Assembly: GCA_051251855.1 (NCBI GenBank)
Contig: JBPOGI010000006.1
Span: 32,001-96,000, forward strand
DNA from: Roseibacillus sp.
Lineage (GTDB): Bacteria; Verrucomicrobiota; Verrucomicrobiia; Verrucomicrobiales; Akkermansiaceae
Reading direction: 5' to 3'
DNA length: 64,000 nucleotides
Of this stretch, positions 24,638 to 36,889 are shown piece after piece. The notes below the pieces were generated by a model, which was given only the letters and a program-made list of their open reading frames with translations, ran no database searches and was not told the DNA's origin. A program made the translations under genes and the position numbers. Position 1 is the first letter of the stretch; each line of letters starts with the position of its first letter.

Positions 24638-27334
24638 CTAACTGCCGATGGGGGCGAGGAGTTGGGAGAGGGTTTCGGAGTCGGGGACGCCTTGGCTGGC
24701 GGCGGAGAGGATGGAGTCGGCGAGGAGGGCCTTCTGTTGTTGCAGGCGGTGAATGCGGTCTTCGACGGTGTTGGCGCAAAGGAGTTTGTGCACGAAGACG
24801 GGCTTGGTCTGGCCGATGCGGTAGGCGCGGTCGGTGGCCTGGGCTTCGGCGGCGGGGTTCCACCAGGGGTCGTAGTGGATGACGGTGTCGGCGGCGGTGA
24901 GGTTGAGTCCTGTGCCGCCGGCTTTGAGGGAGATGAGAAAGATGGGGATTTCGTTTTCCTGGAACCTTTTGACGAGGCCGCCGCGGTCTTGGGAGGAGCC
25001 GGTGAGCTTGAGGTAGGGGGTCTTGCGGGCGATGAGCTCGTTCTCGATGAGTTGGAGCATCGAGGTGAATTGCGAGAAGAGGAGGACGCGGCGTTTTTCG
25101 GCGAAAAGGATATCTAACAGCTCCATGAGGTAATCGAGTTTCGCGGACTTGGGCTGCTTGGGAACTTGGTCGGGGGGGAGGAAGTCGGTGTTGCTGACGA
25201 GGTCGGGGTGGCAGCAGATTTGGCGCAGCTTGAGAAGGGCGTCGAGGATGGTGATTTGTGATTGCGAGATCCCGCGCTCGGCGATGGCATCGCGCACGCG
25301 CTTGTCCATGGTGACGCGGACGGATTCGTAGAGGTCCTTTTGGACGGTGGTGAGTTCGATGGGGTGAACGAGGATGGTCTTGGGAGGGAGGTCTTTGGCG
25401 ACTTCGTCTTTGGTGCGGCGCAGAATGAGGGGAGAGAGGCGGGCACGCAGGGCGTCGCGGCGTTCGATGTTTTCTTCTTTTTCGATGGGGTTTTGGTAGC
25501 GGGTGCGGAAAGCGCTGAGGTCACCGAGAAACCCGGGGATGAGGAAGTGGAAAAGGGACCAGAGTTCGGTAAGGTTGTTTTCGACGGGAGTGCCGCTGAG
25601 GCAGAGTCGGTGTTGTGCTTTGAGTTCGCGGGCGGCGATGCTGACTTTAGCCTGGGGGTTTTTGATGAGCTGGGCTTCGTCGAGGATAGCGAATTTGAAG
25701 GTGTGCTTCTTGAGTTTTTCAATATCGCGCTGGAGGAGGGCGAATGAAGTGATGACTATATCGGCGTGGGGAATGGAGGGGTAGGCTTTGGCGCGCTTGG
25801 AGCCGGAGAGGGTGAGGACCTTGAGGCTGGGGGCGAACTTTTTGGCTTCGGCAGCCCAGTTGGGGACCACCGAGGTGGGGGCGATGACGAGAGAGGGGGT
25901 GGTTTCGCTGCCTTTGCTGGCGAGAAGAAGGGCAAGGGTCTGGATGGTTTTACCAAGGCCCATATCGTCGGCGAGGATGCCGTGGAGGTCGTTCTCTGCA
26001 AGAGTGGCCATCCATTCGTAGCCGATTTGTTGGTAGGGGCGGAGGTCGGCTTGCAGGCCTTCGGGTTTTTCCTTCTTGGCTGTTTCTTTTTGTTCGGAGA
26101 GGTTTTTGCGGAGTTTCTTGAGAGCGGGGCTGGTGGTCTTGATGTCGAACTCCTCGGCGATGGCTGCGGCGTCGACGGGATGGAGCGGGAAGTCGGGGTC
26201 GAGGACGACGGAAAGGTGGTTGAGGATTTGGCGCAGGCGGTCGACGGGAAGGTGGAGGGCGGCTCCGTTGGGGAGGTAGACGAGGTGTTTGTCGGTGGGA
26301 GCTTTGGTGGCGAGTTGGTCGACAATATCGCTTTCTAACAGCTTGAGAAGGATGGGGAGAAGGTCGAAGGATTCACCATCGACATCGAAGCCGACACTGA
26401 GGGTGAACCAGCCGCCTGGGACTTCGTCGAGGCGGGCATCGAGGTCGCTACTAGAAACGTCGTAGAGGTGGTGGCCGAAGTCTTCATCGACGGTGACGGT
26501 CCAGCCGGCGGCTTCGAGCTTGGGGATGGCGGTGGCACGGAACCAAGGCCAGTAGAGGTCGGGGGTGCTGTGGTAGGGCTCGGGGAAAAAGGCGGATGCT
26601 TCGTCGGGGAGTTGGCCGTCTTTTTGGCCTTTGGCCGCCATCCCGAGCATGAAGCGGAAGGAGGGTTGCGCGGCGATGGAGGTGAGTCCAAGTTTGGTGA
26701 GTTGTTCGAGGGCGCGGCGTTCGAGAGCGAGGTCGCGGGGGAAGGGAGTTTCGTGGGGGAGCTGGGAGAGTGGGGATTCGTTGGGGCCGTATTGGAGGGT
26801 GGGGCGGGCGACGAGCCAGATTTCGCGGTCTTGTTGGCGGAGGGCTTGGAGGAGAAGGCGGGTGACTTTGGAGGCGACGGGCTCGGGGGTGAGGTGGAGG
26901 TGGAAGGTGGGTTTGTGTGGGGTGTTGGACGGGATTTGATCGGGCTGTGTTTGATCAGGCAATGGGGCCGGTCGCAGACCAGCGCTCCCAGTGTCGGGTT
27001 CGGTGGGGGCAGTTTCGCGGAGGAGGCGGGTGAAGGTGTTGGGTTTGGCGGTGAGAAAGAGGACGGCGGCGGCGTGGGGGCAGTTGTGGGCGTGGTCGCA
27101 GCTGCAGGCGGTGTCGAAGTCCCATTGGTTGTTGCCCTCAGGCCAGAGGTTGACTTCGACTTGTTGCTCCTCGCTGGTGGCGGTGAGTTGGACGGAGCCG
27201 TCTTCGGTTTCGTCGAGAGCGAGGTCGGGGAGGAGGGGTTTTTTAGCGAGCTTTTTGCCCATCACAAGGACGTGCTCGTCGAAGCGGTGAAGCCACGATT
27301 GCTCGGCGAGAAAGGGTTGGAGGGATTCGGGCAA
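24638..27334 (-). CDS. SNF2/SWI2-family helicase with N-terminal SWIM zinc finger
   Basis: CSC.....C.H SWIM; LRPYQ, LADDMGLGKT, LDEAQ, LSGTPVEN, FLISLKAGGTGLNLT, DPWWNP, DRAYRIGQ. Confidence 0.95.
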   Translation of the reverse strand: MPESLQPFLAEQSWLHRFDEHVLVMGKKLAKKPLLPDLALDETEDGSVQLTATSEEQQVEVNLWPEGNNQWDFDTACSCDHAHNCPHAAAVLFLTAKPNTFTRLLRETAPTEPDTGSAGLRPAPLPDQTQPDQIPSNTPHKPTFHLHLTPEPVASKVTRLLLQALRQQDREIWLVARPTLQYGPNESPLSQLPHETPFPRDLALERRALEQLTKLGLTSIAAQPSFRFMLGMAAKGQKDGQLPDEASAFFPEPYHSTPDLYWPWFRATAIPKLEAAGWTVTVDEDFGHHLYDVSSSDLDARLDEVPGGWFTLSVGFDVDGESFDLLPILLKLLESDIVDQLATKAPTDKHLVYLPNGAALHLPVDRLRQILNHLSVVLDPDFPLHPVDAAAIAEEFDIKTTSPALKKLRKNLSEQKETAKKEKPEGLQADLRPYQQIGYEWMATLAENDLHGILADDMGLGKTIQTLALLLASKGSETTPSLVIAPTSVVPNWAAEAKKFAPSLKVLTLSGSKRAKAYPSIPHADIVITSFALLQRDIEKLKKHTFKFAILDEAQLIKNPQAKVSIAARELKAQHRLCLSGTPVENNLTELWSLFHFLIPGFLGDLSAFRTRYQNPIEKEENIERRDALRARLSPLILRRTKDEVAKDLPPKTILVHPIELTTVQKDLYESVRVTMDKRVRDAIAERGISQSQITILDALLKLRQICCHPDLVSNTDFLPPDQVPKQPKSAKLDYLMELLDILFAEKRRVLLFSQFTSMLQLIENELIARKTPYLKLTGSSQDRGGLVKRFQENEIPIFLISLKAGGTGLNLTAADTVIHYDPWWNPAAEAQATDRAYRIGQTKPVFVHKLLCANTVEDRIHRLQQQKALLADSILSAASQGVPDSETLSQLLAPIGS

Positions 27335-27385
27335 GGGAGAGGATTTGAACCGCTAAGGCGCAAAGACGCGAAGGTTTTTGGTGTT

Positions 27386-28084: not shown

Positions 28085-28240
28085 TTCGACGCAGAGCCGC
28101 AGAGAGCACAAAGTTGTCGCAGAGACTATAATTTGAGTTTGTTAAAGAGGCATAGAGGTCTCGCTTTGTTTCAAATCTCTTTTTTATCCTAAAGGAAAGT
28201 CTCTGCGTTCACTCCGCGTTGTCTGCGACTCTGCGTTGAA
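28085..28240. repeat. MITE-like element with 42-bp imperfect inverted arms built from CGCAGAG units
   Basis: 28085-28126 versus the reverse complement of 28199-28240: 32/42 identical by hand alignment; AT-rich 72-bp spacer. Confidence 0.7.
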
Positions 28241-28244
28241 GGTT

Positions 28245-29738
28245 CTACAGGAGTGCTTGCTTGAGGTCTTTAATGAAGCTTGCGAGTTGGTTCTCTTTTT
28301 CGGCTGGGTCGGGGAGGCGGAGGAGGTAGCTGGGGTGGATGGTGGCGATGACTTTGGGGGCGAGGTGGGGGAGGGGATCGGGTTGGATGCCGCGTTGTTT
28401 GAGGACTTGGAATTTGGAGTCGATGAGGGCTTGGGCGGGGGTGTTGCCGAGGGTGATGATGACGTCGGGTTGGATTTTGAGGATTTCAGCGAGGACCCAG
28501 GGCTTGCAGTGGTGGACTTCTTCTTTGCTGGCTTTGTCGTGGAGACGGCGCTTACCTTGAGGTTTGAATTTGAAGTGTTTGACGGTGTTGGTGAGGTAGA
28601 GTTCCTCTCGGTTGAGGCCGGCTTCTTGGAGGGCTTGGTCGAGGAGCTTTCCGGCGGGGCCGACGAAGGGGCGGCCGGAGATGTCTTCTTGGTCTCCGGG
28701 TTGTTCGCCGATGATCATGATGCGAGCGTCGGGTGGGCCTTCGCCAAAGACGGTTTGGGTGGCGGCGTCGTAAAGGGGGCAGTGACGGCAGGCGGTGGCG
28801 GCTTCGTCGATTTGTTGCAGGGAGAGGTCTTGGGCTTGGGCGAGGGCTTCGATGGGGGCTAGGCCGAGTTGGTCGGTGTCGGGGTGTTGAGCTCCGAGGG
28901 GGGTGTTGGCGGAGACATGAGCGCGGTCGAGATTGGGGCCTTGCTCGACCATATCGATGGCACGGTGAGAGGCGGTGGAGGTGAGCTCGGCGATGAGGGG
29001 GGCTTCCGGGAGGTTTTTCCAATACTTTTTGGGCATCTCGGATTGCATCGCTTTGAGCTTGAGGCGGGCGGGGTTGAAGATGCTGGCATAATAGGTGCGC
29101 CAGTAGTCTTCGAGTTCGTCGACTTTGGGGGCTTGGGAGGAATCGACGCCTTTGGTGAAGGTGAGCTCTTTTCCGTCCCAATGGGCACAGCGGTCGGGGG
29201 TGAGGATGGACCAGTCGAAGGAGGTAAAGCGTTTGGCGAAGAAGGGGGCGGTGAGCTCGACGATGGAGTGGGTGGGCTCGAACCAAGCCACGAACTGCTC
29301 GCGGCCGGTGTCGGGGTGTTCGCCGATTTTGCGAAAGCGGACAAAGGCTTTCATCTTGTGGCGGTCGCGGGAGATTTCTTTGGCGAGAGATTCGAGGCGC
29401 CGAGTGAGAAAGTGTGTTGAGATGCGGAGGAGGTTTTTTTCGCCGTTGTTGATGCGGTAAATGACTTCGTAGAGCAGGGACCATCGTTCGGGGTCGCGGT
29501 GGCAGGCGACGAGGGTGGCGAGTTCGAGGAAGGCTTTGGGAGTGCGGATTTCGGTGAGGTCGCGGGGGTTGTAGTGGGCTTTGGCTTCTTGAACTGATGC
29601 GAGGGAGTCGTTGAAGAGGGAGTTTGTTTGAGTGCCGTCTTCGAAGAGGACTTTGTGGGGCGGGACACGGCCTCGAAGAAGTTCGCGGGCTTGTTCGCGC
29701 CAGGAAGCGAGGTTGGGTTCGATGGAAGCAGGGTGCAT
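28245..29738 (-). CDS. Fusion of DUF4130 (TIGR03915-type) and UdgX-family uracil-DNA binding protein
   Basis: Start ATG 29738. N-terminal RDRHKMKAFVRF, WFEP.H.IV, PFF..RF...WSILTP, W.TYYASIFNPARL, EMPKKYWKNLPEA. C-terminal CRHCPLY, GEQPGDQED..GRPFVGPAG, VKHFKF...GKRRLH, TIHPSYLLR. Confidence 0.93.
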   Translation of the reverse strand: MHPASIEPNLASWREQARELLRGRVPPHKVLFEDGTQTNSLFNDSLASVQEAKAHYNPRDLTEIRTPKAFLELATLVACHRDPERWSLLYEVIYRINNGEKNLLRISTHFLTRRLESLAKEISRDRHKMKAFVRFRKIGEHPDTGREQFVAWFEPTHSIVELTAPFFAKRFTSFDWSILTPDRCAHWDGKELTFTKGVDSSQAPKVDELEDYWRTYYASIFNPARLKLKAMQSEMPKKYWKNLPEAPLIAELTSTASHRAIDMVEQGPNLDRAHVSANTPLGAQHPDTDQLGLAPIEALAQAQDLSLQQIDEAATACRHCPLYDAATQTVFGEGPPDARIMIIGEQPGDQEDISGRPFVGPAGKLLDQALQEAGLNREELYLTNTVKHFKFKPQGKRRLHDKASKEEVHHCKPWVLAEILKIQPDVIITLGNTPAQALIDSKFQVLKQRGIQPDPLPHLAPKVIATIHPSYLLRLPDPAEKENQLASFIKDLKQALL

Positions 29739-29744
29739 GGAAGA

Positions 29745-29841
29745 GGAGAGCGGCTTTGTAAGCCGCTGAGGGTTGGTGTGAGATATGAAAGGACGTTGTT
29801 TTGATCGGGCAGTGGGGTGGCTTGCAAAGCCACGCTCCCGT
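29745..29841. repeat. 97-bp direct repeat, copy 1 (inverted REP doublet with spacer)
   Basis: GGAGAGCGGCTTTGTAAGCCGC...GTGGCTTGCAAAGCCACGCTCCCGT; 91/97 identical to 30452-30548. Confidence 0.93.
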
Positions 29842-30441
29842 TTATTCTCTTTCGTAGAAGCGGTATTTGGTTGTGGGGAGTCTTTTTGGGTTTCGATGGA
29901 TGTAAGTTTGAGTGGCTTTGAAGTGTGCTTCGTGCCGGATGAGACGGTCCCAGTAGTCAGGTTGCCAGAGAGGGCCTCTTCTCTTTTCCATTTTGTTGAT
30001 TTCTCTGGCGGTGAAGCGTTTCCAAGAATGAATGATATCGGAAAGAGAATGACCTTCGTGGGGTGAGAAAAGAATGTGGATATGGTTCGGCATGACGACA
30101 AAGCTTTGGAGGAGATAGCGCTGGTTGTCGAAGTGGTGTAAAGCGTTAGCTACGATGGCTGAATTTTCAGGTTTTTGCAGAAGGCAGGATCCGTAATTGG
30201 CATCGAGATAAGAATCAATTTTCTCGCTGAAAAGTTGATGGTATTCGGATTCTTGTCTTTCGTTCCTTGGAGGAGGATTGTGGGAAAGCCAGGCTGAGCG
30301 GTGTTCTTGCCATTTGTTCAGTAGTCGGATGGGAAGGGCGTCTGCGAGGCGGAAGGTTACAAAGATCCAGACTTGCTCCTGTTGCCAGTGAGGAAGGTTG
30401 TTCTCGGTTTTTGAGATTGTCTTTTCTGGCTGGTAGAACAT
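29842..30441 (-). mobile_element. REP-associated tyrosine transposase (RAYT, Y1/HUH family)
   Basis: Start ATG 30441; LPHW, FVTFRLADALP, VVMPNHIH (HUH), HSWKRFTAREIN, LWQPDYWDRLIR, YIHRNP (catalytic Tyr). Flanked by palindromic repeats. Confidence 0.92.
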
Positions 30442-30451
30442 GTGACGAAGG

Positions 30452-30548
30452 GGAGAGCGGCTTTGCAAGCCGCTGAGGGTTGGTGTGAGATATGAAAGGA
30501 CGTTGTTTGAATCTGGCAGTGGGGCGGCTTGCAAAGCCGCGCTCCCGT
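30452..30548. repeat. 97-bp direct repeat, copy 2 (inverted REP doublet with spacer)
   Basis: GGAGAGCGGCTTTGCAAGCCGC...GCGGCTTGCAAAGCCGCGCTCCCGT; an extra GCTCCCGT follows at 30553-30560. Confidence 0.93.
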
Positions 30549-30563
30549 GAGGGCTCCCGTTAC

Positions 30564-31877
30564 CTAAATTTCACCGGTGGCGGCGCTGAGGGCGATGGCT
30601 TTGGTGGTTTGGGGTGGGCGGTTTTGGGTGAAGTCGAGTTCGAGTTGAGCGGGGGGTGGCAGGAAGAGTTGGCGCAGTTTGTCGCCCTCTAACAAATTGG
30701 GGGCGGGATGGTAGTCGAGGGTGATGAGGAAGGGGCGGCATTTCTTGAGAGAGACGCCGAGGGTTTGCAGGTCTTGGAGACGGAGGGCGTGATGGCGGCG
30801 GCTTTGTAGAATGCGGCTGACGGAGCGGACGCCAATGCCGGGGATTCGGAGGAGGTCGTCTTTGGAGGCGCGGTTGACGTCGATGGGAAAGGAGGTGCGA
30901 TTGCGGAGGGCCCATGAGAGTTTGGGGTCGAGATCGAGGTCGAGGGTGGGGTGTTGCTCGTTGGCGATTTCGGTGACGGAGTAGCCGTAGAATCGGAGGA
31001 GCCAGTCGGCTTGGTAGAGACGGTGCTCGCGAATGAGGGGTGGAGATTTGGCGGGGAGAATGGGGGAGGAGTCGGGGATGGGGCTGTAGGCGGAGTAATA
31101 GACGCGCCGCATTTTGTAACTACTATAAAGGTCGTTGCTACGGTGGAGGATTTGGTGGTCGTTGGCGTCGTCGGCTCCGATAATCATTTGGGTGGATTGA
31201 CCGGCGGGGGAGAAGGCTTTGGGTTTGGCGGCGCGGGAGACGGTTTTGTTGCGGCGGGCTTCTTTGTTTTCTTCGATTCGCATTCGGATGCCGCCCATGG
31301 CTTGACGCGTGCGGCGGAGGTTCTTTTCGGGGGCGAGAGTGGCGAGACTTTCCTGAGTGGGGAGCTCGATGTTGATGCTGATGCGGTCGGCGTATTTGCC
31401 AGCCTGGTCGATGAGCTCTTGGGAGGCTTCGGGGATGGTTTTGAGGTGGATGTAGCCGCGGAAGTGATGGTCTTCGCGCAGGGAGCGGGCAATCTCGTTG
31501 ACTTGCTCCATGGTGTAGTCGGGGTTGCGAATGATGCCGGAGCTGAGGAAGAGGCCTTCGATGTAGTTACGCTTGTAGAAGTCGAGAGTGAGCTTTACCA
31601 CTTCCTGCGGAGTGAAGCGCGCGCGTGGGGTGTCGCTGGAGCGCCGGTTGATGCAGTAGTGGCAGTCGTAAATACAGGCGTTGGTGAGGAGAACCTTGAG
31701 GAGGGAGATGCAGCGTCCGTCGGGGGCGTAGCTGTGGCAGATTCCTGCTCCGCCGGAGGAGCCGAGGGCTTTAGAATTCTTTCCCGAGGAGTCTCGCTTG
31801 TCGGTGCCGCTACTGGCGCAGGAGGCGTCGTATTTGGCGGCGTCGGCGAGAATAGAGAGCTTTTTTTGGAGGGTCAA
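30564..31877 (-). CDS. Putative DNA modification/repair radical SAM protein (TIGR03916-type) with C-terminal HhH
   Basis: KL.ILADAAKYDASC, GICHSY.PDGRCISLLK.LLTN.CIYDCHYC (CxxxCxxC), REHRLYQADWLLRFYG, LLRIPGIG. Confidence 0.95.
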   Translation of the reverse strand: MTLQKKLSILADAAKYDASCASSGTDKRDSSGKNSKALGSSGGAGICHSYAPDGRCISLLKVLLTNACIYDCHYCINRRSSDTPRARFTPQEVVKLTLDFYKRNYIEGLFLSSGIIRNPDYTMEQVNEIARSLREDHHFRGYIHLKTIPEASQELIDQAGKYADRISINIELPTQESLATLAPEKNLRRTRQAMGGIRMRIEENKEARRNKTVSRAAKPKAFSPAGQSTQMIIGADDANDHQILHRSNDLYSSYKMRRVYYSAYSPIPDSSPILPAKSPPLIREHRLYQADWLLRFYGYSVTEIANEQHPTLDLDLDPKLSWALRNRTSFPIDVNRASKDDLLRIPGIGVRSVSRILQSRRHHALRLQDLQTLGVSLKKCRPFLITLDYHPAPNLLEGDKLRQLFLPPPAQLELDFTQNRPPQTTKAIALSAATGEI

Positions 31878-31890
31878 AAGAAAGGAAAGT

Positions 31891-31904
31891 TGTTACCATG
31901 AACA
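31891..31904. promoter_or_regulatory. LexA (SOS) box, Verrucomicrobia type
   Basis: TGTTA-CCAT-GAACA, one mismatch to TGTTC-N4-GAACA, 13 nt upstream of the radical SAM start. An adjacent TGTTC half-site lies at 31906. Confidence 0.75.
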
Positions 31905-31966
31905 ATGTTCTTTTGAGGTGGGAATGCAAGTCTGAATTCGTTCTGCTTCTTGAAATCAGTGTCTTG

Positions 31967-34348
31967 CTAGGACCGAGGAAGAGCGTAGGAGTGTCGTTGT
32001 GAATCAAATACGAGCGTTTCGAAATGCTGGTGGCTCCAGGCGATGGCATCTTCTCCGCTTTTTTGGTCAACGAGTTCGTCAAGCCATTGATAGTGCTGGG
32101 AAGCTGATGAGGAAGAGGAGAGGACGAGAGAAGTGATCAGCTCTCGGAGCGCTTCTTTGTTTCCTGTTTTGGCGGCGAGGTAGCCTAGTTCTTCGTGATT
32201 GCTGCTTCTTGCGTTGAACCGGAGTAATCGGGCTTCTTCGATGGTCTGAGCCAAAGGAAAGTTGGGGAGAGCTGAGAGAGTTTGGGCAAGGGTGCGGTGC
32301 CGGTATCTGGCTTGAGTGAAGAGCCAAGCGAGGTCGGGGTAGGTTTGGGGGTCTTTGGCAGATGCTACGATGGTGAAGACATTTTGAATGGAGTCCTGAG
32401 GGATGTGGTGGCGGTTTCGAAGCAAGAAGGAGAGCACAGGAGCTGCCTCCTTGGTCCAGCCTTTTTTGGAGAAGAGGGTCGCTAGGGACGGGTCATGCTC
32501 GAGAGCTGTTAGAAGAGAGGGGAGATGGGACTCATCTGCAAATTGAGTGAGAGTCTCCAAGGCGAGCTGTTGTGCAGGAGGGGGAACAGGCAAACGCTTG
32601 ATGAGGGCGGGGAGGTGTCCTTTGCTCAACACGTGGTATTTGCTCCGTGCCAATTTTTTCTCGACTGGGTCGATATCGTCGGCGAGGTCGTAGAGAATGA
32701 GGTCGAGGTAGGCTTCAACTTCTTCCTTCGAGGGATTTTGGGAAAGGTGAGCAATGGACCAGCGAATTTTTTCTTTAGGTTTGGGGGTGGTTTTTTCCTC
32801 ACTACCAAAGGGGATCCAGTTCTCACGCTGGAAGTCTCCAAAGACGGAATCTGTTTGTTGGTAGGTGAAGACGAGGAGTTCCAGCTGAGAGAGAGCTTTT
32901 GTGGAAGAGGAAAGTTCTTGGAGGTAAGTGGCGTCGGCTTTGTCGAGATGGCATCTGAACTGGATCTTTCGAATGGGGCTGCTGGAAAAATTCGTACCCA
33001 TGAATCGGTATTTGCAAGAGAAGAGAGTGTTGCTGGTGGGGTCTCTGAGAAGAAGTCCAATCGGTCTCTTGGTCAGCGAGAGGGCACCAGGACGAAAATA
33101 CATTTCGTGGAGGCGGCTCTCGAGAGAGGTTAACAGTCCCGCAATATGAAAGTTGAAGCTGGCATCTTCTTCGTCAACGGAAAGGATCTTGAAGCGACTG
33201 GTTTTGTCGAAGAGAGAGGAAGCGCCTTCTTGCAGCGGAATGGTGACTGCCAAATGAGGTTCTAACAAGATACCGGAATAGGATCCCCTGATATGGAGTG
33301 GGGATGAAATGTCAGAAGTCCATTCAGGAGGCATGAAGCTATCGTTAGCCGGGATGCGCTCCCTTTCTGCCGAGGGGGGGAGTAGGCGAGTAAGTTGAGG
33401 CGCGAGCTGGAAGCTTTCTCTGAGACGAAAGAATGAGTGGTTTCCTTCAAAGGAGCATTCCATTTCTCTGGGAAAAAGAAGCTGTCCGGCGGGAAGATTG
33501 GCGGTGAGCTGGGGAGTGATGAGGGTTGCGTTCGGTAGTGGTTCTTCACCCTTGGCGAGGACTCTGAGGTCGAGCCTCTTTTGAACGATGGTCTGGGGGC
33601 TGGTCGGCTCGTAGAAGCGATAGTTCCAAAACACTCCGCTGGTTGAGAAGGCGAAGAAAGCGACGAGGGCAAGGTAACTGGCGGGCTTTGGACTACGGAA
33701 GCGCGAGGAAGTATAGCAAGCAATGAGAAGGAGGCCTATCGAGAGAGCGAGGGGAAGAAGGAGAGAACCGTCTATTTGAAAATTGTAAGGTGAAGGGGGA
33801 ATTGCCAAGTGGAAGAGCAATCGTGCCAGTGTCGAAAAAAGGGGCAGGGCAATGAGGATTCCTGCTGTCCAAAGGAGAACGTTTCGAGGTCGCCGAGAGA
33901 GCGCGGAGAGTAGGGTGATCCAGAGAACGATGTGGATTTGGTGGAGCGAAGCAAGGGCGCAAGTCTCCCTGACGAAGGTCCAACTAGGAATGAACAAAAC
34001 GAAGGGCAAGGCGAAGCTGGAGACGAGTGGAACAAGAATAAGGACGAGGATGAGGCTGCTCTTTTCCCAGAAGAGGGTCATCGGTTTGAGGGGAAGAGTT
34101 CGCCAATAGGGGGCCTCGCTCCCGAAGGGCGTGGTGAAGAGAATGCGAGAAGCGAGAAGAGCTCCCAAGAGAGCTAGCGTGAAATTTACAGTGGTGGACC
34201 AAAGAAGAATCAACGGCGAATCGTGAGTGTCGCTCTTGAGTAGGATGGTTCGGCCTAAGGCGACCAGAAGGAGAAGAAGAATCCAAGGAGCCCAGACCGG
34301 AAAGATACGGCGGAAGTCCCACTTCCACTGGTTGAAGAAGGTAGTCAT
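31967..34348 (-). CDS. Large membrane protein, putative ABC permease with big soluble C-terminal region
   Basis: About 7 TM segments at the N-terminus with a W.TLPL....LF.EK loop; last gene of the GntR-ABC operon. Confidence 0.7.
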   Translation of the reverse strand: MTTFFNQWKWDFRRIFPVWAPWILLLLLVALGRTILLKSDTHDSPLILLWSTTVNFTLALLGALLASRILFTTPFGSEAPYWRTLPLKPMTLFWEKSSLILVLILVPLVSSFALPFVLFIPSWTFVRETCALASLHQIHIVLWITLLSALSRRPRNVLLWTAGILIALPLFSTLARLLFHLAIPPSPYNFQIDGSLLLPLALSIGLLLIACYTSSRFRSPKPASYLALVAFFAFSTSGVFWNYRFYEPTSPQTIVQKRLDLRVLAKGEEPLPNATLITPQLTANLPAGQLLFPREMECSFEGNHSFFRLRESFQLAPQLTRLLPPSAERERIPANDSFMPPEWTSDISSPLHIRGSYSGILLEPHLAVTIPLQEGASSLFDKTSRFKILSVDEEDASFNFHIAGLLTSLESRLHEMYFRPGALSLTKRPIGLLLRDPTSNTLFSCKYRFMGTNFSSSPIRKIQFRCHLDKADATYLQELSSSTKALSQLELLVFTYQQTDSVFGDFQRENWIPFGSEEKTTPKPKEKIRWSIAHLSQNPSKEEVEAYLDLILYDLADDIDPVEKKLARSKYHVLSKGHLPALIKRLPVPPPAQQLALETLTQFADESHLPSLLTALEHDPSLATLFSKKGWTKEAAPVLSFLLRNRHHIPQDSIQNVFTIVASAKDPQTYPDLAWLFTQARYRHRTLAQTLSALPNFPLAQTIEEARLLRFNARSSNHEELGYLAAKTGNKEALRELITSLVLSSSSSASQHYQWLDELVDQKSGEDAIAWSHQHFETLVFDSQRHSYALPRS

Positions 34349-34351
34349 TGA

Positions 34352-36889
34352 TTAGTCTTTCGAGTTGTTCGTTTTTGGGACGAAGCGTTCGATGATGGGA
34401 TCGAAGCGGAAGTCGTCAGGCTCATGTTTGGACAGCCGATGTTGGAGTTCTTGAAAATTGAAACGAGGGAAGTGGAAGAATTTGGTCAGAGAGCGTCTGG
34501 GATGATTGTTATGGAAGCGGTATGTGTGCTGGGTGTAGTTCAGAACAAAGAAGAGGTCTTCGAGGGCTTGTTCGTCTCCCAGCTGTAGGGCAAGCGCTCG
34601 CTCGGGTGAAATAGCAGGGAAGTTACTAGACGGGCTGAAGGGGAATATCTGAGGGGCTGGCTCTCCCAACCTTGATTTGATGAGGGCTTGTTTGATTCGG
34701 GGATGCCTCAGTATGATTGGAGTAAGCTCATTTGCGGGGTCTTTCTTTACGAAGGAAACGAGGAGATGATCGTTTTTGGGGTTGTTGCATGCGAGTAGCC
34801 CTTGGACCGCTCTTTGTTGCATGCCCGAATCGGGGTGATTGAGGTGCTTTCGAAAAACTGCTTCTCCTTCTTGTATCCATCCTCGTTCAATAAGGACCGT
34901 CATGAGGAAGGGATAGTCATTGGCGGCAGAGATGAGCTGGTCCTTGTCGTCGCGGCGAATGCCAGAGGAAATGGCTTTGGTAAAGATGGCCGCGAATGAA
35001 CTATTGGGTTCAAAGCGACTGAGATCGGAGAGGAAGAGGGAGAGGTGAGACTCTACAAGGGGAGAGAGTTGTTCTGCTAGGAAGTCCTCTTCAATGTGGA
35101 TGCGGTGGAGGCTTCGAACGAGATGGGAAGTGAAGTTGTAGAGGAAAGTCGCGACTTCGGAGGTTGGTGCGTTGGCCTTCGGTTGGTTTTGGCGCAACCA
35201 AAGTGCGAATTGTCCCGAGTGAAAAATTTCCTCTCCTAGTTGAGTCCCATTTGGAGGCCGCCTGCGGTGAGAGGGAAAAGGGGGATAGTTTTCGCTCTGA
35301 TAGGGAACGACTGCTGAGCCTATTTTGGTTGCTTCGATGAAGACGAGTTGGGCGCCAAGGAGGTTGATGCGACCCTTCTGAGGGCTATCAAAGTGGATGG
35401 AAAGTTCTTCGTGATCTAATAAAATGGAGCTGCTCTGTTTGCCTGCTTTTCTGACTTCGCCGAAGTGAATGAGTTGATGAGAAGGAAGGTAGAGTCCGCA
35501 CAGTCGGTTATCGGGAGAGTCTTCCTCTTCGCTTTTGGAGAAGAGGAGACGGCGAGGTTTTGCTTTGGAAAGAGAGAAATGAAGACCGTCGGAATTCCAA
35601 GCAAGCGGGACAATTCGAACGGTATTATCCTTTGAAGGAGAATTGAGAGGAACTCTATTTTCAATCTTCCACTGGCCAGCCAAGATGCGAATGGAGCCCT
35701 TGAGATGGAAGGGGGTTTGTGGAAGCTTATTACGAAAACTGTCCGAGCTCGGAAGATTCACTTTGTTGGCTTGCCCCCAGCTCCCGTAGGGAACGATAGC
35801 GCGAAGATCGGGAAAAGTTTTCAGCAAGAGTCTTTCGAATCCAGGAGCGAGAGTGCCCGAGGGGAGGTGAATACTGTAGAATTGCGGCTCCCGATAAGAT
35901 GGTCCGTCACTTTCAAAGTGCGCCTCTCCAAGATTCTGAATCTCATAGCGTGAGAACTCGAAGGCGTAGTCGACATCAGGGAAGTGCTGGGTCAATTGGG
36001 CGCGAGACTCTTTGGGTATTGTTATCGTGAGCGCACCCGAATCTCCGATTGAAAAGGTGTTCGGCAGGTGGGTCTGAATGTCAATGGGGTGGTTAGGATT
36101 CGTAAGAATCGAGGTGAGGGTTTTGCGATGGGGGTTGGGCTGGAAGCTCCAGCGGTTGAGCACGTTTGCTACTATGAGGGAGAGGAGAAGCAGTCCTGCG
36201 AGAGAGAGGAAGCGACGAGGGAAGGCAACCTCCTTGCGGCTCTGCGTCTTGAGGAGAAGAAGGAGGCCGCAAGAGAGAAAGAGGGCAGTGATGAAAAGAG
36301 AAAGACGGTGAGGTGATTGATTTTTCCAGAGAATGGAGGGAAGAAACTCGAGTTCATGAAGCATTTGCAGGAAGTTCCAAAAGCTCACTAAAACTAAAAT
36401 CGAAATCAGGCTCGAGAGGATGAGGGAAAGAGGTGATTGCTGATGAAGGGTGAAGCTCGTAATCAAGAGTGCTAGGGCACTGAGAACGAGGAGCCAATCA
36501 AGGGTGGTGAGGGAGAGAGAGGCTGCGACTTCGTTGTGCAGGAGCATCAAGGCGGCATTGAGAGAGAGGATAGGAAGGATGAGGGCGGTGAAGACAAAGA
36601 GTGCTTTCCCTCCATAGAGCGCGAAAGGGGTCAGGGGACGAGTAGTGAGTGGTCGGTCTCGCTTTGAGGGGGAATCGCTGAGGAAGGGAGCGGCCACGAG
36701 GAAGAGAAAGAGTAGCCCCACGGAAGCATTGATGAGAAGGACGAAGGACCAGTTGAGAAGATTGTATCCCCAGTCCGTGGACTCCGATTGAGAGGGAAGA
36801 TGAGCTACGAAAAGGAGAGCCAAGAAGAGGAGGACGAAGACGCGATATTTTCGGAATTCGTGAGCGCATTGATGAAGGAGTAGATTCAT
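34352..36889 (-). CDS. Large membrane protein, putative ABC permease (same architecture as 31967..34348)
   Basis: N-terminal TM bundle with TRPL....LY.GK loop; overlaps the ATPase stop codon. Confidence 0.7.
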   Translation of the reverse strand: MNLLLHQCAHEFRKYRVFVLLFLALLFVAHLPSQSESTDWGYNLLNWSFVLLINASVGLLFLFLVAAPFLSDSPSKRDRPLTTRPLTPFALYGGKALFVFTALILPILSLNAALMLLHNEVAASLSLTTLDWLLVLSALALLITSFTLHQQSPLSLILSSLISILVLVSFWNFLQMLHELEFLPSILWKNQSPHRLSLFITALFLSCGLLLLLKTQSRKEVAFPRRFLSLAGLLLLSLIVANVLNRWSFQPNPHRKTLTSILTNPNHPIDIQTHLPNTFSIGDSGALTITIPKESRAQLTQHFPDVDYAFEFSRYEIQNLGEAHFESDGPSYREPQFYSIHLPSGTLAPGFERLLLKTFPDLRAIVPYGSWGQANKVNLPSSDSFRNKLPQTPFHLKGSIRILAGQWKIENRVPLNSPSKDNTVRIVPLAWNSDGLHFSLSKAKPRRLLFSKSEEEDSPDNRLCGLYLPSHQLIHFGEVRKAGKQSSSILLDHEELSIHFDSPQKGRINLLGAQLVFIEATKIGSAVVPYQSENYPPFPSHRRRPPNGTQLGEEIFHSGQFALWLRQNQPKANAPTSEVATFLYNFTSHLVRSLHRIHIEEDFLAEQLSPLVESHLSLFLSDLSRFEPNSSFAAIFTKAISSGIRRDDKDQLISAANDYPFLMTVLIERGWIQEGEAVFRKHLNHPDSGMQQRAVQGLLACNNPKNDHLLVSFVKKDPANELTPIILRHPRIKQALIKSRLGEPAPQIFPFSPSSNFPAISPERALALQLGDEQALEDLFFVLNYTQHTYRFHNNHPRRSLTKFFHFPRFNFQELQHRLSKHEPDDFRFDPIIERFVPKTNNSKD

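Follow-up and report, generated by a model that had tools for sequence, protein, structure and literature searches.

We analyzed a 64,000-nt stretch of Roseibacillus sp. DNA (assembly GCA_051251855.1, contig JBPOGI010000006.1, positions 32,001-96,000; hereafter the window, its genome being labelled G000), in which a RAYT gene, coding for a transposase associated with repetitive extragenic palindromic (REP) sequences, lies inside a DNA repair operon. On the minus strand, a LexA-type site is followed by a radical SAM gene, a first REPIN (a pair of inverted REP hairpins), the RAYT gene, a second REPIN, and a gene for a DUF4130-UdgX fusion. This order had been proposed in an earlier note on the same DNA, and both the coordinates (Table 1) and family profiles confirmed it. 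Judging from sequence comparison, we consider it likely that the arrangement arose by a lineage-specific insertion of a mobile, promoterless REPtron (REPIN-RAYT-REPIN, ~810 bp) in a junction of a known SOS repair operon. The RAYT is best read as a passenger that is not a repair component and adds no new repair pathway.

The distribution of the RAYT at this operon points to a passenger. Radical SAM loci were pooled (201 rows, of which 7 duplicates were dropped and 194 kept; a few duplicates may remain) and searched for Y1 transposases with a profile built from 49 RAYT matches. A match was found at one locus of the 194, that of the window. DUF4130/UdgX was in view at 171 loci, lying within 60 nt of the radical SAM gene at 150, at 61-400 nt at 12, and farther away at 9; at the other 23 of the 194 loci it was out of view, mostly at contig ends. 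As the earlier note held, TIGR03916 genes are normally next to TIGR03915/UdgX genes. Among genomes of the genus, the radical SAM gene occurs in six of nine and the RAYT at the junction in one of those six, so the comparison of occupied and empty sites speaks for a passenger insertion and not for the system coupling RAYT to the SOS response that the earlier note had envisaged. The gap between radical SAM and DUF4130 genes measures 7-12 nt in G005, G006, and G007, and in G001 (91% identical) the junction holds one REPIN of a different REP family. Three other long gaps were scanned and had PIN or cytochrome P460 genes inside. By all appearances, then, the radical SAM/DUF4130 junction is a tolerant landing site. 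Four of 10 listed sequencing runs were compared with the window at the cassette, and an excised form or empty site was sought. Run X3, which shares its study with the possible source of the window, matches the window, and no joint skipping exactly the cassette was found in it. In run X7, from a second study, a 213-nt contig spans the RAYT end, REPIN 2, and the DUF4130 start without differences, which argues against an assembly artefact. Run X9, from a relative ~90% alike, leaves the cassette uncovered and shows loose ends at it. A further observation concerns G004, where other repeats and a 5.7-kb opposite-strand catabolic cluster (L053:3560-9234; proline racemase, aldehyde dehydrogenase, DAO, and DHDPS-family genes) split the operon; that insertion would separate DUF4130-UdgX from the LexA promoter.

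The catalytic motifs of the RAYT are intact. The HUH motif (NHIH, residues 119-122) and the catalytic tyrosine in YIHRNP (residues 180-185) are present, as the earlier note had said, together with W159-Q160, and all are invariant columns in the family alignment. The protein scores 43.4 bits against PF01797 (cut-off 23) and 79.2 bits, just below the cut-off of 80, against NF047646. In each flanking REPIN, a spacer of ~50 nt separates two inverted, GGAG-tagged hairpins; the RNA fold z values are -4.7 and -2.9. The repeats had been described as 97 bp long and as leaving no obvious room for a separate promoter. They are in fact 102 nt each, and their near-complete filling of the intergenic space is borne out (102 of 122 and 102 of 103 bases on either side of the RAYT), with REPIN 1 ending 5 nt ahead of the RAYT ATG and REPIN 2 beginning at the RAYT stop codon. 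The spacer is physically large enough to hold a promoter, contrary to the note; a promoter/terminator scan found no minus-strand intrinsic terminator or sigma-70 promoter in the REPINs. G000 has no copies of the full 102-nt unit besides these two. The REP motif has 46 matches in that genome vs. 0 and 1 in two shuffles, and the family is dispersed outside genes, so that the RAYT is flanked by dispersed REPs as a REPtron would be. The exact REP pattern was found in three of nine genus genomes, precisely the three with this RAYT clade. The 93% identity of the two REPINs, set against the near-saturated synonymous divergence of the RAYT from its sister, implies a recent duplication or gene conversion.

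Evidence for relocation comes from the dapB-folK junction. In a 25-row tree of nearest neighbors and outgroups chosen from a 99-row set, the window RAYT is sister to a dapB-folK RAYT, L068 (98/92), and both group with a second dapB-folK RAYT, L079 (89/90). The dapB gene was found in all nine genus genomes. At dapB-folK, G004 and G002 carry the cassette, G000 has a 12-nt spacer, and the G003 contig ends at the gene, which makes G000 and G004/G002 reciprocal in their filled and empty sites. In addition, flanks differ among six RAYTs with 72-84% identity, each from a genome of its own; for four of the six, the upstream genes could be named and are different. Together with the reciprocal sites, these RAYTs suggest that the subfamily has been relocating as a cassette. 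Synonymous divergence (dS) of the window RAYT from L068 is 1.6, inside the 0.8-1.9 range of dapB, the radical SAM gene, and recA, and dN/dS is ~0.19, indicating purifying selection; these figures are rough, with dS near saturation. The dS match and the tree grouping fit vertical descent with a change of address, and the cassette probably moved to the window site from dapB-folK in this lineage. A short stretch ahead of the folK ATG, CTCTCCTC, was considered as an excision scar and rejected; it has some likeness to a REPIN end, but its shortness and its similarity to other pyrimidine-rich leaders count against it.

Related RAYTs occupy many unrelated addresses. After de-duplication, 168 homologous loci comprised 110 standalone RAYTs and 58 fused in frame (by a length rule); the in-frame hosts checked include LeuRS, MetH, AlaRS, HsdR, adenosine deaminase, nucleosidase, and FolK. 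G000 has three RAYT-family matches, none fused in frame. Upstream open reading frames (ORFs) were scanned at 61 loci (58 of the best 60 standalone plus 3 borderline), the scan taking in the nearest upstream ORFs only. Fifty of the 61 upstream neighbors had a Pfam match, representing 38 kinds that include dapB, aroA, aconitase, thiC, gatB, glyA, ahcY, hprK, and valS; 41 of the 50 are co-oriented with the RAYT. Locus-specific direct repeats were present on both sides at 33 of 57 standalone loci (scores of at least 60; best shuffle 32), and the cassettes are usually placed right behind host stop codons. Two further ideas were discarded. Co-orientation does not prove promoter capture; at 31 of 38, p is 1e-4 vs. 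50% but 0.21 vs. an assumed 72% typical of ordinary genes. An SOS enrichment of the cassette, suggested by a second cassette behind recA, was ruled out by the larger set, in which one upstream neighbor is recA and none is TIGR03916; SOS genes make up 1 of 38 kinds, which fits chance (p 0.17-0.69 at assumed backgrounds of 0.5-3%).

Several points weigh against the move of a self-mobile cassette into a resident operon. For dapB-folK to be the ancestral site, the cassette must have been lost more than once, as judged on a weak species tree of two genes, and two independent insertions at dapB-folK are possible. Some sites (thiC, aconitase, and dapB) recur in different species, so the cassettes move slowly. 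Some of the pooled radical SAM loci were seen with 1.5-kb flanks only, the divergence figures are rough as noted, and the high REP number of G000 (below) is not predicted by a pure-passenger model. In the literature, two sources (PMC8266576; bioRxiv 2021.07.10.451892) state that there is no evidence of RAYT mobility, and a third (bioRxiv 2024.07.17.603846) did not see RAYT circles in E. coli. RAYT duplication, loss, and rare horizontal transfer are allowed by bioRxiv 119735, as far as its accessible text goes. On balance, we lean toward self-mobility of this GGAG-REP RAYT subfamily, with some reserve.

If the RAYT were not self-moving, host recombination between REPs or horizontal acquisition would have placed it, and it might be poorly expressed or polar on DUF4130-UdgX through its strong hairpins. 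Its GC content (47% vs. 59-60% in adjoining genes), the direct repeats, which are RecA substrates, and REPIN 1, folding at -46 kcal/mol and ending so close to the ATG, are in keeping with such an origin, as is the hairpin down-regulation of read-through RAYT transcripts proposed in the accessible part of PMC3733652. However, its dS is like that of host genes and it groups with genus members, REP-length homology by itself would hardly yield so exact a position behind stop codons at many unrelated addresses, and DUF4130-UdgX is intact. We therefore regard this alternative as unlikely.

For the LexA box of the operon we took the consensus to be TGTTC-N4-GAACA and checked it here by conservation. 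Of 34 family radical SAM genes, 28 have a match (2 mismatches or fewer) within 70 nt upstream, where 0.9 would be expected; this supports the LexA-like box that the earlier note had placed upstream of radical SAM. Similar tandem boxes stand ahead of lexA and recA in G000; thus, both a conserved box over the promoter and a lexA gene in the same genome were found, as in a LexA regulon. Genome-wide, 1-mismatch box matches show no excess (94 vs. 112-133 in shuffles), and it is therefore conservation that supports the box. TTG-containing hexamers occur at a position similar to that of the window's -35-like hexamer in close relatives (by eye). The nearest named matches to the radical SAM protein are Roseibacillus records. 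In the fusion protein, the loop histidine of the UdgX KRRxH motif is presumably the residue that binds uracil sites covalently. The UdgX half scores 275 bits against TIGR03914 (cut-off 190) and 192 bits against the UdgX structures 6IOD/6AIL, with KRRLH aligned to KRRIH of 6IOD and the loop histidine kept; GEQPG and the Fe-S cysteines are also in place, as expected of a UdgX. In genes, order, and upstream box, the locus is the same as the COG4277-COG1573 SOS repair operon (TIGR03916/TIGR03915/TIGR03914), from which it differs by an 825-nt insert parting two genes that elsewhere are mostly at close range. SOS regulation of this operon, based on a uracil-DNA glycosylase (UDG), was reported in Verrucomicrobia, Alphaproteobacteria, and Bacteroidetes (PMC8565304, accessible portion), and DUF4130 was linked to radical SAM and UDG genes (PMC3765255, likewise in part). 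SOS control of the host operon is thus already known.

In the scenario that we favor, a mobile REPtron carried as a passenger, the RAYT would bind GGAG-tagged hairpins on single-stranded DNA, Tyr180 would nick them, and strand transfer would follow, mostly resulting in REPIN spread; these steps are modelled on HUH chemistry (PMC8266576, accessible portion). The whole cassette would move rarely, for example as a RAYT-plus-one-REPIN circle of ~707 bp, and would land just behind stop codons, where it breaks no gene and borrows the host transcript. At the window site, that transcript would start from the LexA-repressed promoter and would be damage-induced. Expression through upstream read-through has been proposed for RAYTs in general (PMC3733652, in part). 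Given the conserved LexA-type footprint, the reported SOS regulation, and the failure of the scan to find a terminator or internal promoter in the REPINs, co-transcription of the RAYT with the operon and its incidental damage induction are plausible. Since read-through probably starts at the LexA-repressed promoter, damage induction of the RAYT is likely but accidental; it is probably a by-product of position and not a selected repair function.

Another explanation would grant the passenger an address that matters, such that the RAYT would be supplied by read-through under LexA control at times of abundant single-stranded DNA, and this would have driven the REP expansion in this lineage. At 2 mismatches or fewer, REP matches number 45 in G000, 15 in G002, 4 in G004 (all at its cassette), 1 in G001, and 0 in G005. 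REPIN 2 also starts within 15 nt of the RAYT stop codon, and at such distances E. coli REPs allow translational down-regulation that is relieved by UV (bioRxiv 2024.07.17.603846, accessible portion). However, one genome only is concerned, and 28 of its 46 motif matches (counted by eye) are part of another REPIN type, longer and diverged, whose spacer differs and whose flank is similar to the dapB-folK REPIN of G004; the spread may thus be older than the move. Furthermore, G002, only 79% complete, has its copies without an SOS link, and the gene upstream of radical SAM is co-oriented with no terminator found, making LexA-independent read-through possible. The explanation is accordingly doubtful. 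Equally speculative is a broader reading, in which GGAG-REP RAYTs would be slow autonomous transposons hiding in host transcription units, either at operon junctions or in frame within essential genes; in this lineage, one would have jumped from dapB-folK to a site behind a LexA-repressed promoter, acquired damage inducibility, and brought about a roughly tenfold expansion of REPs. If true, the lineage would offer a natural experiment on how REP spread depends on RAYT expression and the supply of single-stranded DNA.

We give very little credence to a domesticated RAYT nicking hairpins for the radical SAM/UdgX repair operon during SOS, a role that the earlier note had entertained: although the gene is intact, co-oriented, and under purifying selection inside a LexA-boxed operon, a cassette and a remnant lie behind recA in two other genomes, and REP insertions in DNA repair genes were noted earlier (PMC3733652, in part), the association is confined to a single locus of the 194, the junction takes unrelated inserts (the catabolic cluster, PIN-domain genes, cytochrome P460, other repeats), the subfamily is without SOS bias, and purifying selection is equally expected of a selfish element.

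Compared with described REPtrons (E. coli TnpA-REP, PDB 4ER8; class 2, PMC6006769, accessible portion), the window RAYT shares the HUH motif, the Y---NP core, and WQ, and is likewise the single copy of its clade in the genome and flanked by REPINs. Unlike them, its REP is without the conserved GT[AG]G foot, having GGAG 3 nt before the stem and variable preceding bases, its protein has an N-terminal extension of ~100 aa, and its flanking REPINs are locus-specific direct repeats. By eye, its motifs fit subclass 2.7 best (NHxH, WQ, YI.xNP, long N-terminus). Long fused proteins were set aside in that RAYT classification, according to the accessible text (PMC6006769). The TnpA of IS200/IS605 insertion sequences (ISDra2) is similar in its HUH-Y1 fold (34 bits), hairpin ends, and apparent mobility as a unit. 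We take PDB 2XM3/2XMA to be ISDra2 TnpA. The window RAYT nevertheless has Y---NP instead of Y---Q and scores 30.5 bits against NF033573 (cut-off 55), and its element lacks tnpB and identical genome copies and has symmetric REPIN ends; membership in IS200/IS605 was rejected on the motif, the score, and the lack of tnpB or near-identical copies. Published descriptions present RAYT genes as domesticated and non-jumping, and add that the dissemination of REPs has never been reproduced in vivo (PMC8266576). Those descriptions apply at the species level, whereas in the window's subfamily the address varies within a genus, in a comparison between species; RAYT relocation therefore runs against published statements, and the subfamily is apparently mobile. 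A search of titles and abstract openings, covering few subscription journals, found no publication on SOS-controlled RAYTs, a RAYT in this operon, or RAYT relocation in Verrucomicrobia. The value of the locus lies in RAYT biology, since a copy behind an apparently inducible promoter and between direct repeats makes RAYT induction, cassette excision, and REP spread experimentally accessible.

Table 1. Features of the RAYT-bearing repair operon, in window coordinates.
Feature	Positions	Strand	Basis or remark
-35-like hexamer TTGCAT, inferred operon promoter	31924..31929	-	seen in the sequence; promoter scan did not pick the hexamer up
Distal weak LexA-type box ACCTC-AAAA-GAACA, 3 mismatches	31906..31919	-	tandem spacing same as upstream of recA
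Proximal LexA-type box TGTTC-ATGG-TAACA, 1 mismatch to consensus	31891..31904	-	conservation in family, recA, lexA
TIGR03916 putative DNA repair radical SAM protein, 437 aa	30564..31877	-	TIGR03916 585 bits, cut-off 343.5
REPIN 1, 102 nt; REP hairpins 30545-30524 (-) and 30452-30473 (+); spacer common to REPIN 2 only	30447..30548	-	
RAYT / TnpA-REP HUH-Y1 transposase, 199 aa, ATG start	29842..30441	-	H120-I-H122, W159-Q160, Y180
REPIN 2, 102 nt, direct repeat of REPIN 1 (93%); REP hairpins 29838-29817 (-) and 29745-29766 (+)	29740..29841	-	
DUF4130 (TIGR03915)-UdgX (TIGR03914) fusion, 497 aa; GEQPG, KRRLH, HPSYLLR motifs	28245..29738	-	TIGR03915 and TIGR03914 both over cut-off

Additional observations were made on the surroundings of the operon and on related elements. 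Directly upstream of the operon (window 31967-36889, minus strand) are two large genes in the same orientation, with membrane-protein-like products of 793 and 845 aa that had no Pfam or NCBIfam match; read-through from these genes could bypass LexA. After the UdgX gene comes an imperfect inverted repeat with 50-nt arms, with short repeats of the CTTCGTG/CTCTGCG type nearby (window 28085-28240 and 27340-27375); it resembles repeats beside GxxExxY genes. Behind recA, a RAYT cassette follows the gene directly at L069:3858-4600, the remnant in another genome is at L082:3780-4255, and in G000 a second-family REPIN stands behind recA. In L297, recG is divergent from the RAYT and one gene away.

Most dispersed copies of the window's REP are in the longer REPIN type, which measures ~145 nt, has a variant second arm and a spacer with a conserved GGCCTACC, and occurs at window 59563 (G000:C10:91563) and at 27 other sites. 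At G000:C1:493376, C6:732016, and C6:778189, the same REP falls within long open frames (844, 780, and 403 aa) and may be translated; in-frame RAYTs of genus members (L027, L029, L044, L042, L028, L030, L079, and others) carry translated REP arms. The second REP family is also found on the flanks of the RAYT at G000:C1:1784308 and is the one that occupies the radical SAM junction of G001, and two tandem RAYT genes of this family (L043/L046, G001:C39), similar to that at G000:C1:1784308, represent a recent local duplication. Finally, a second-family REP at window 26948-26990 (minus strand) is in frame within an SNF2 helicase gene (24638-27334), where it is read as GSAGLRPAPLPDQT.

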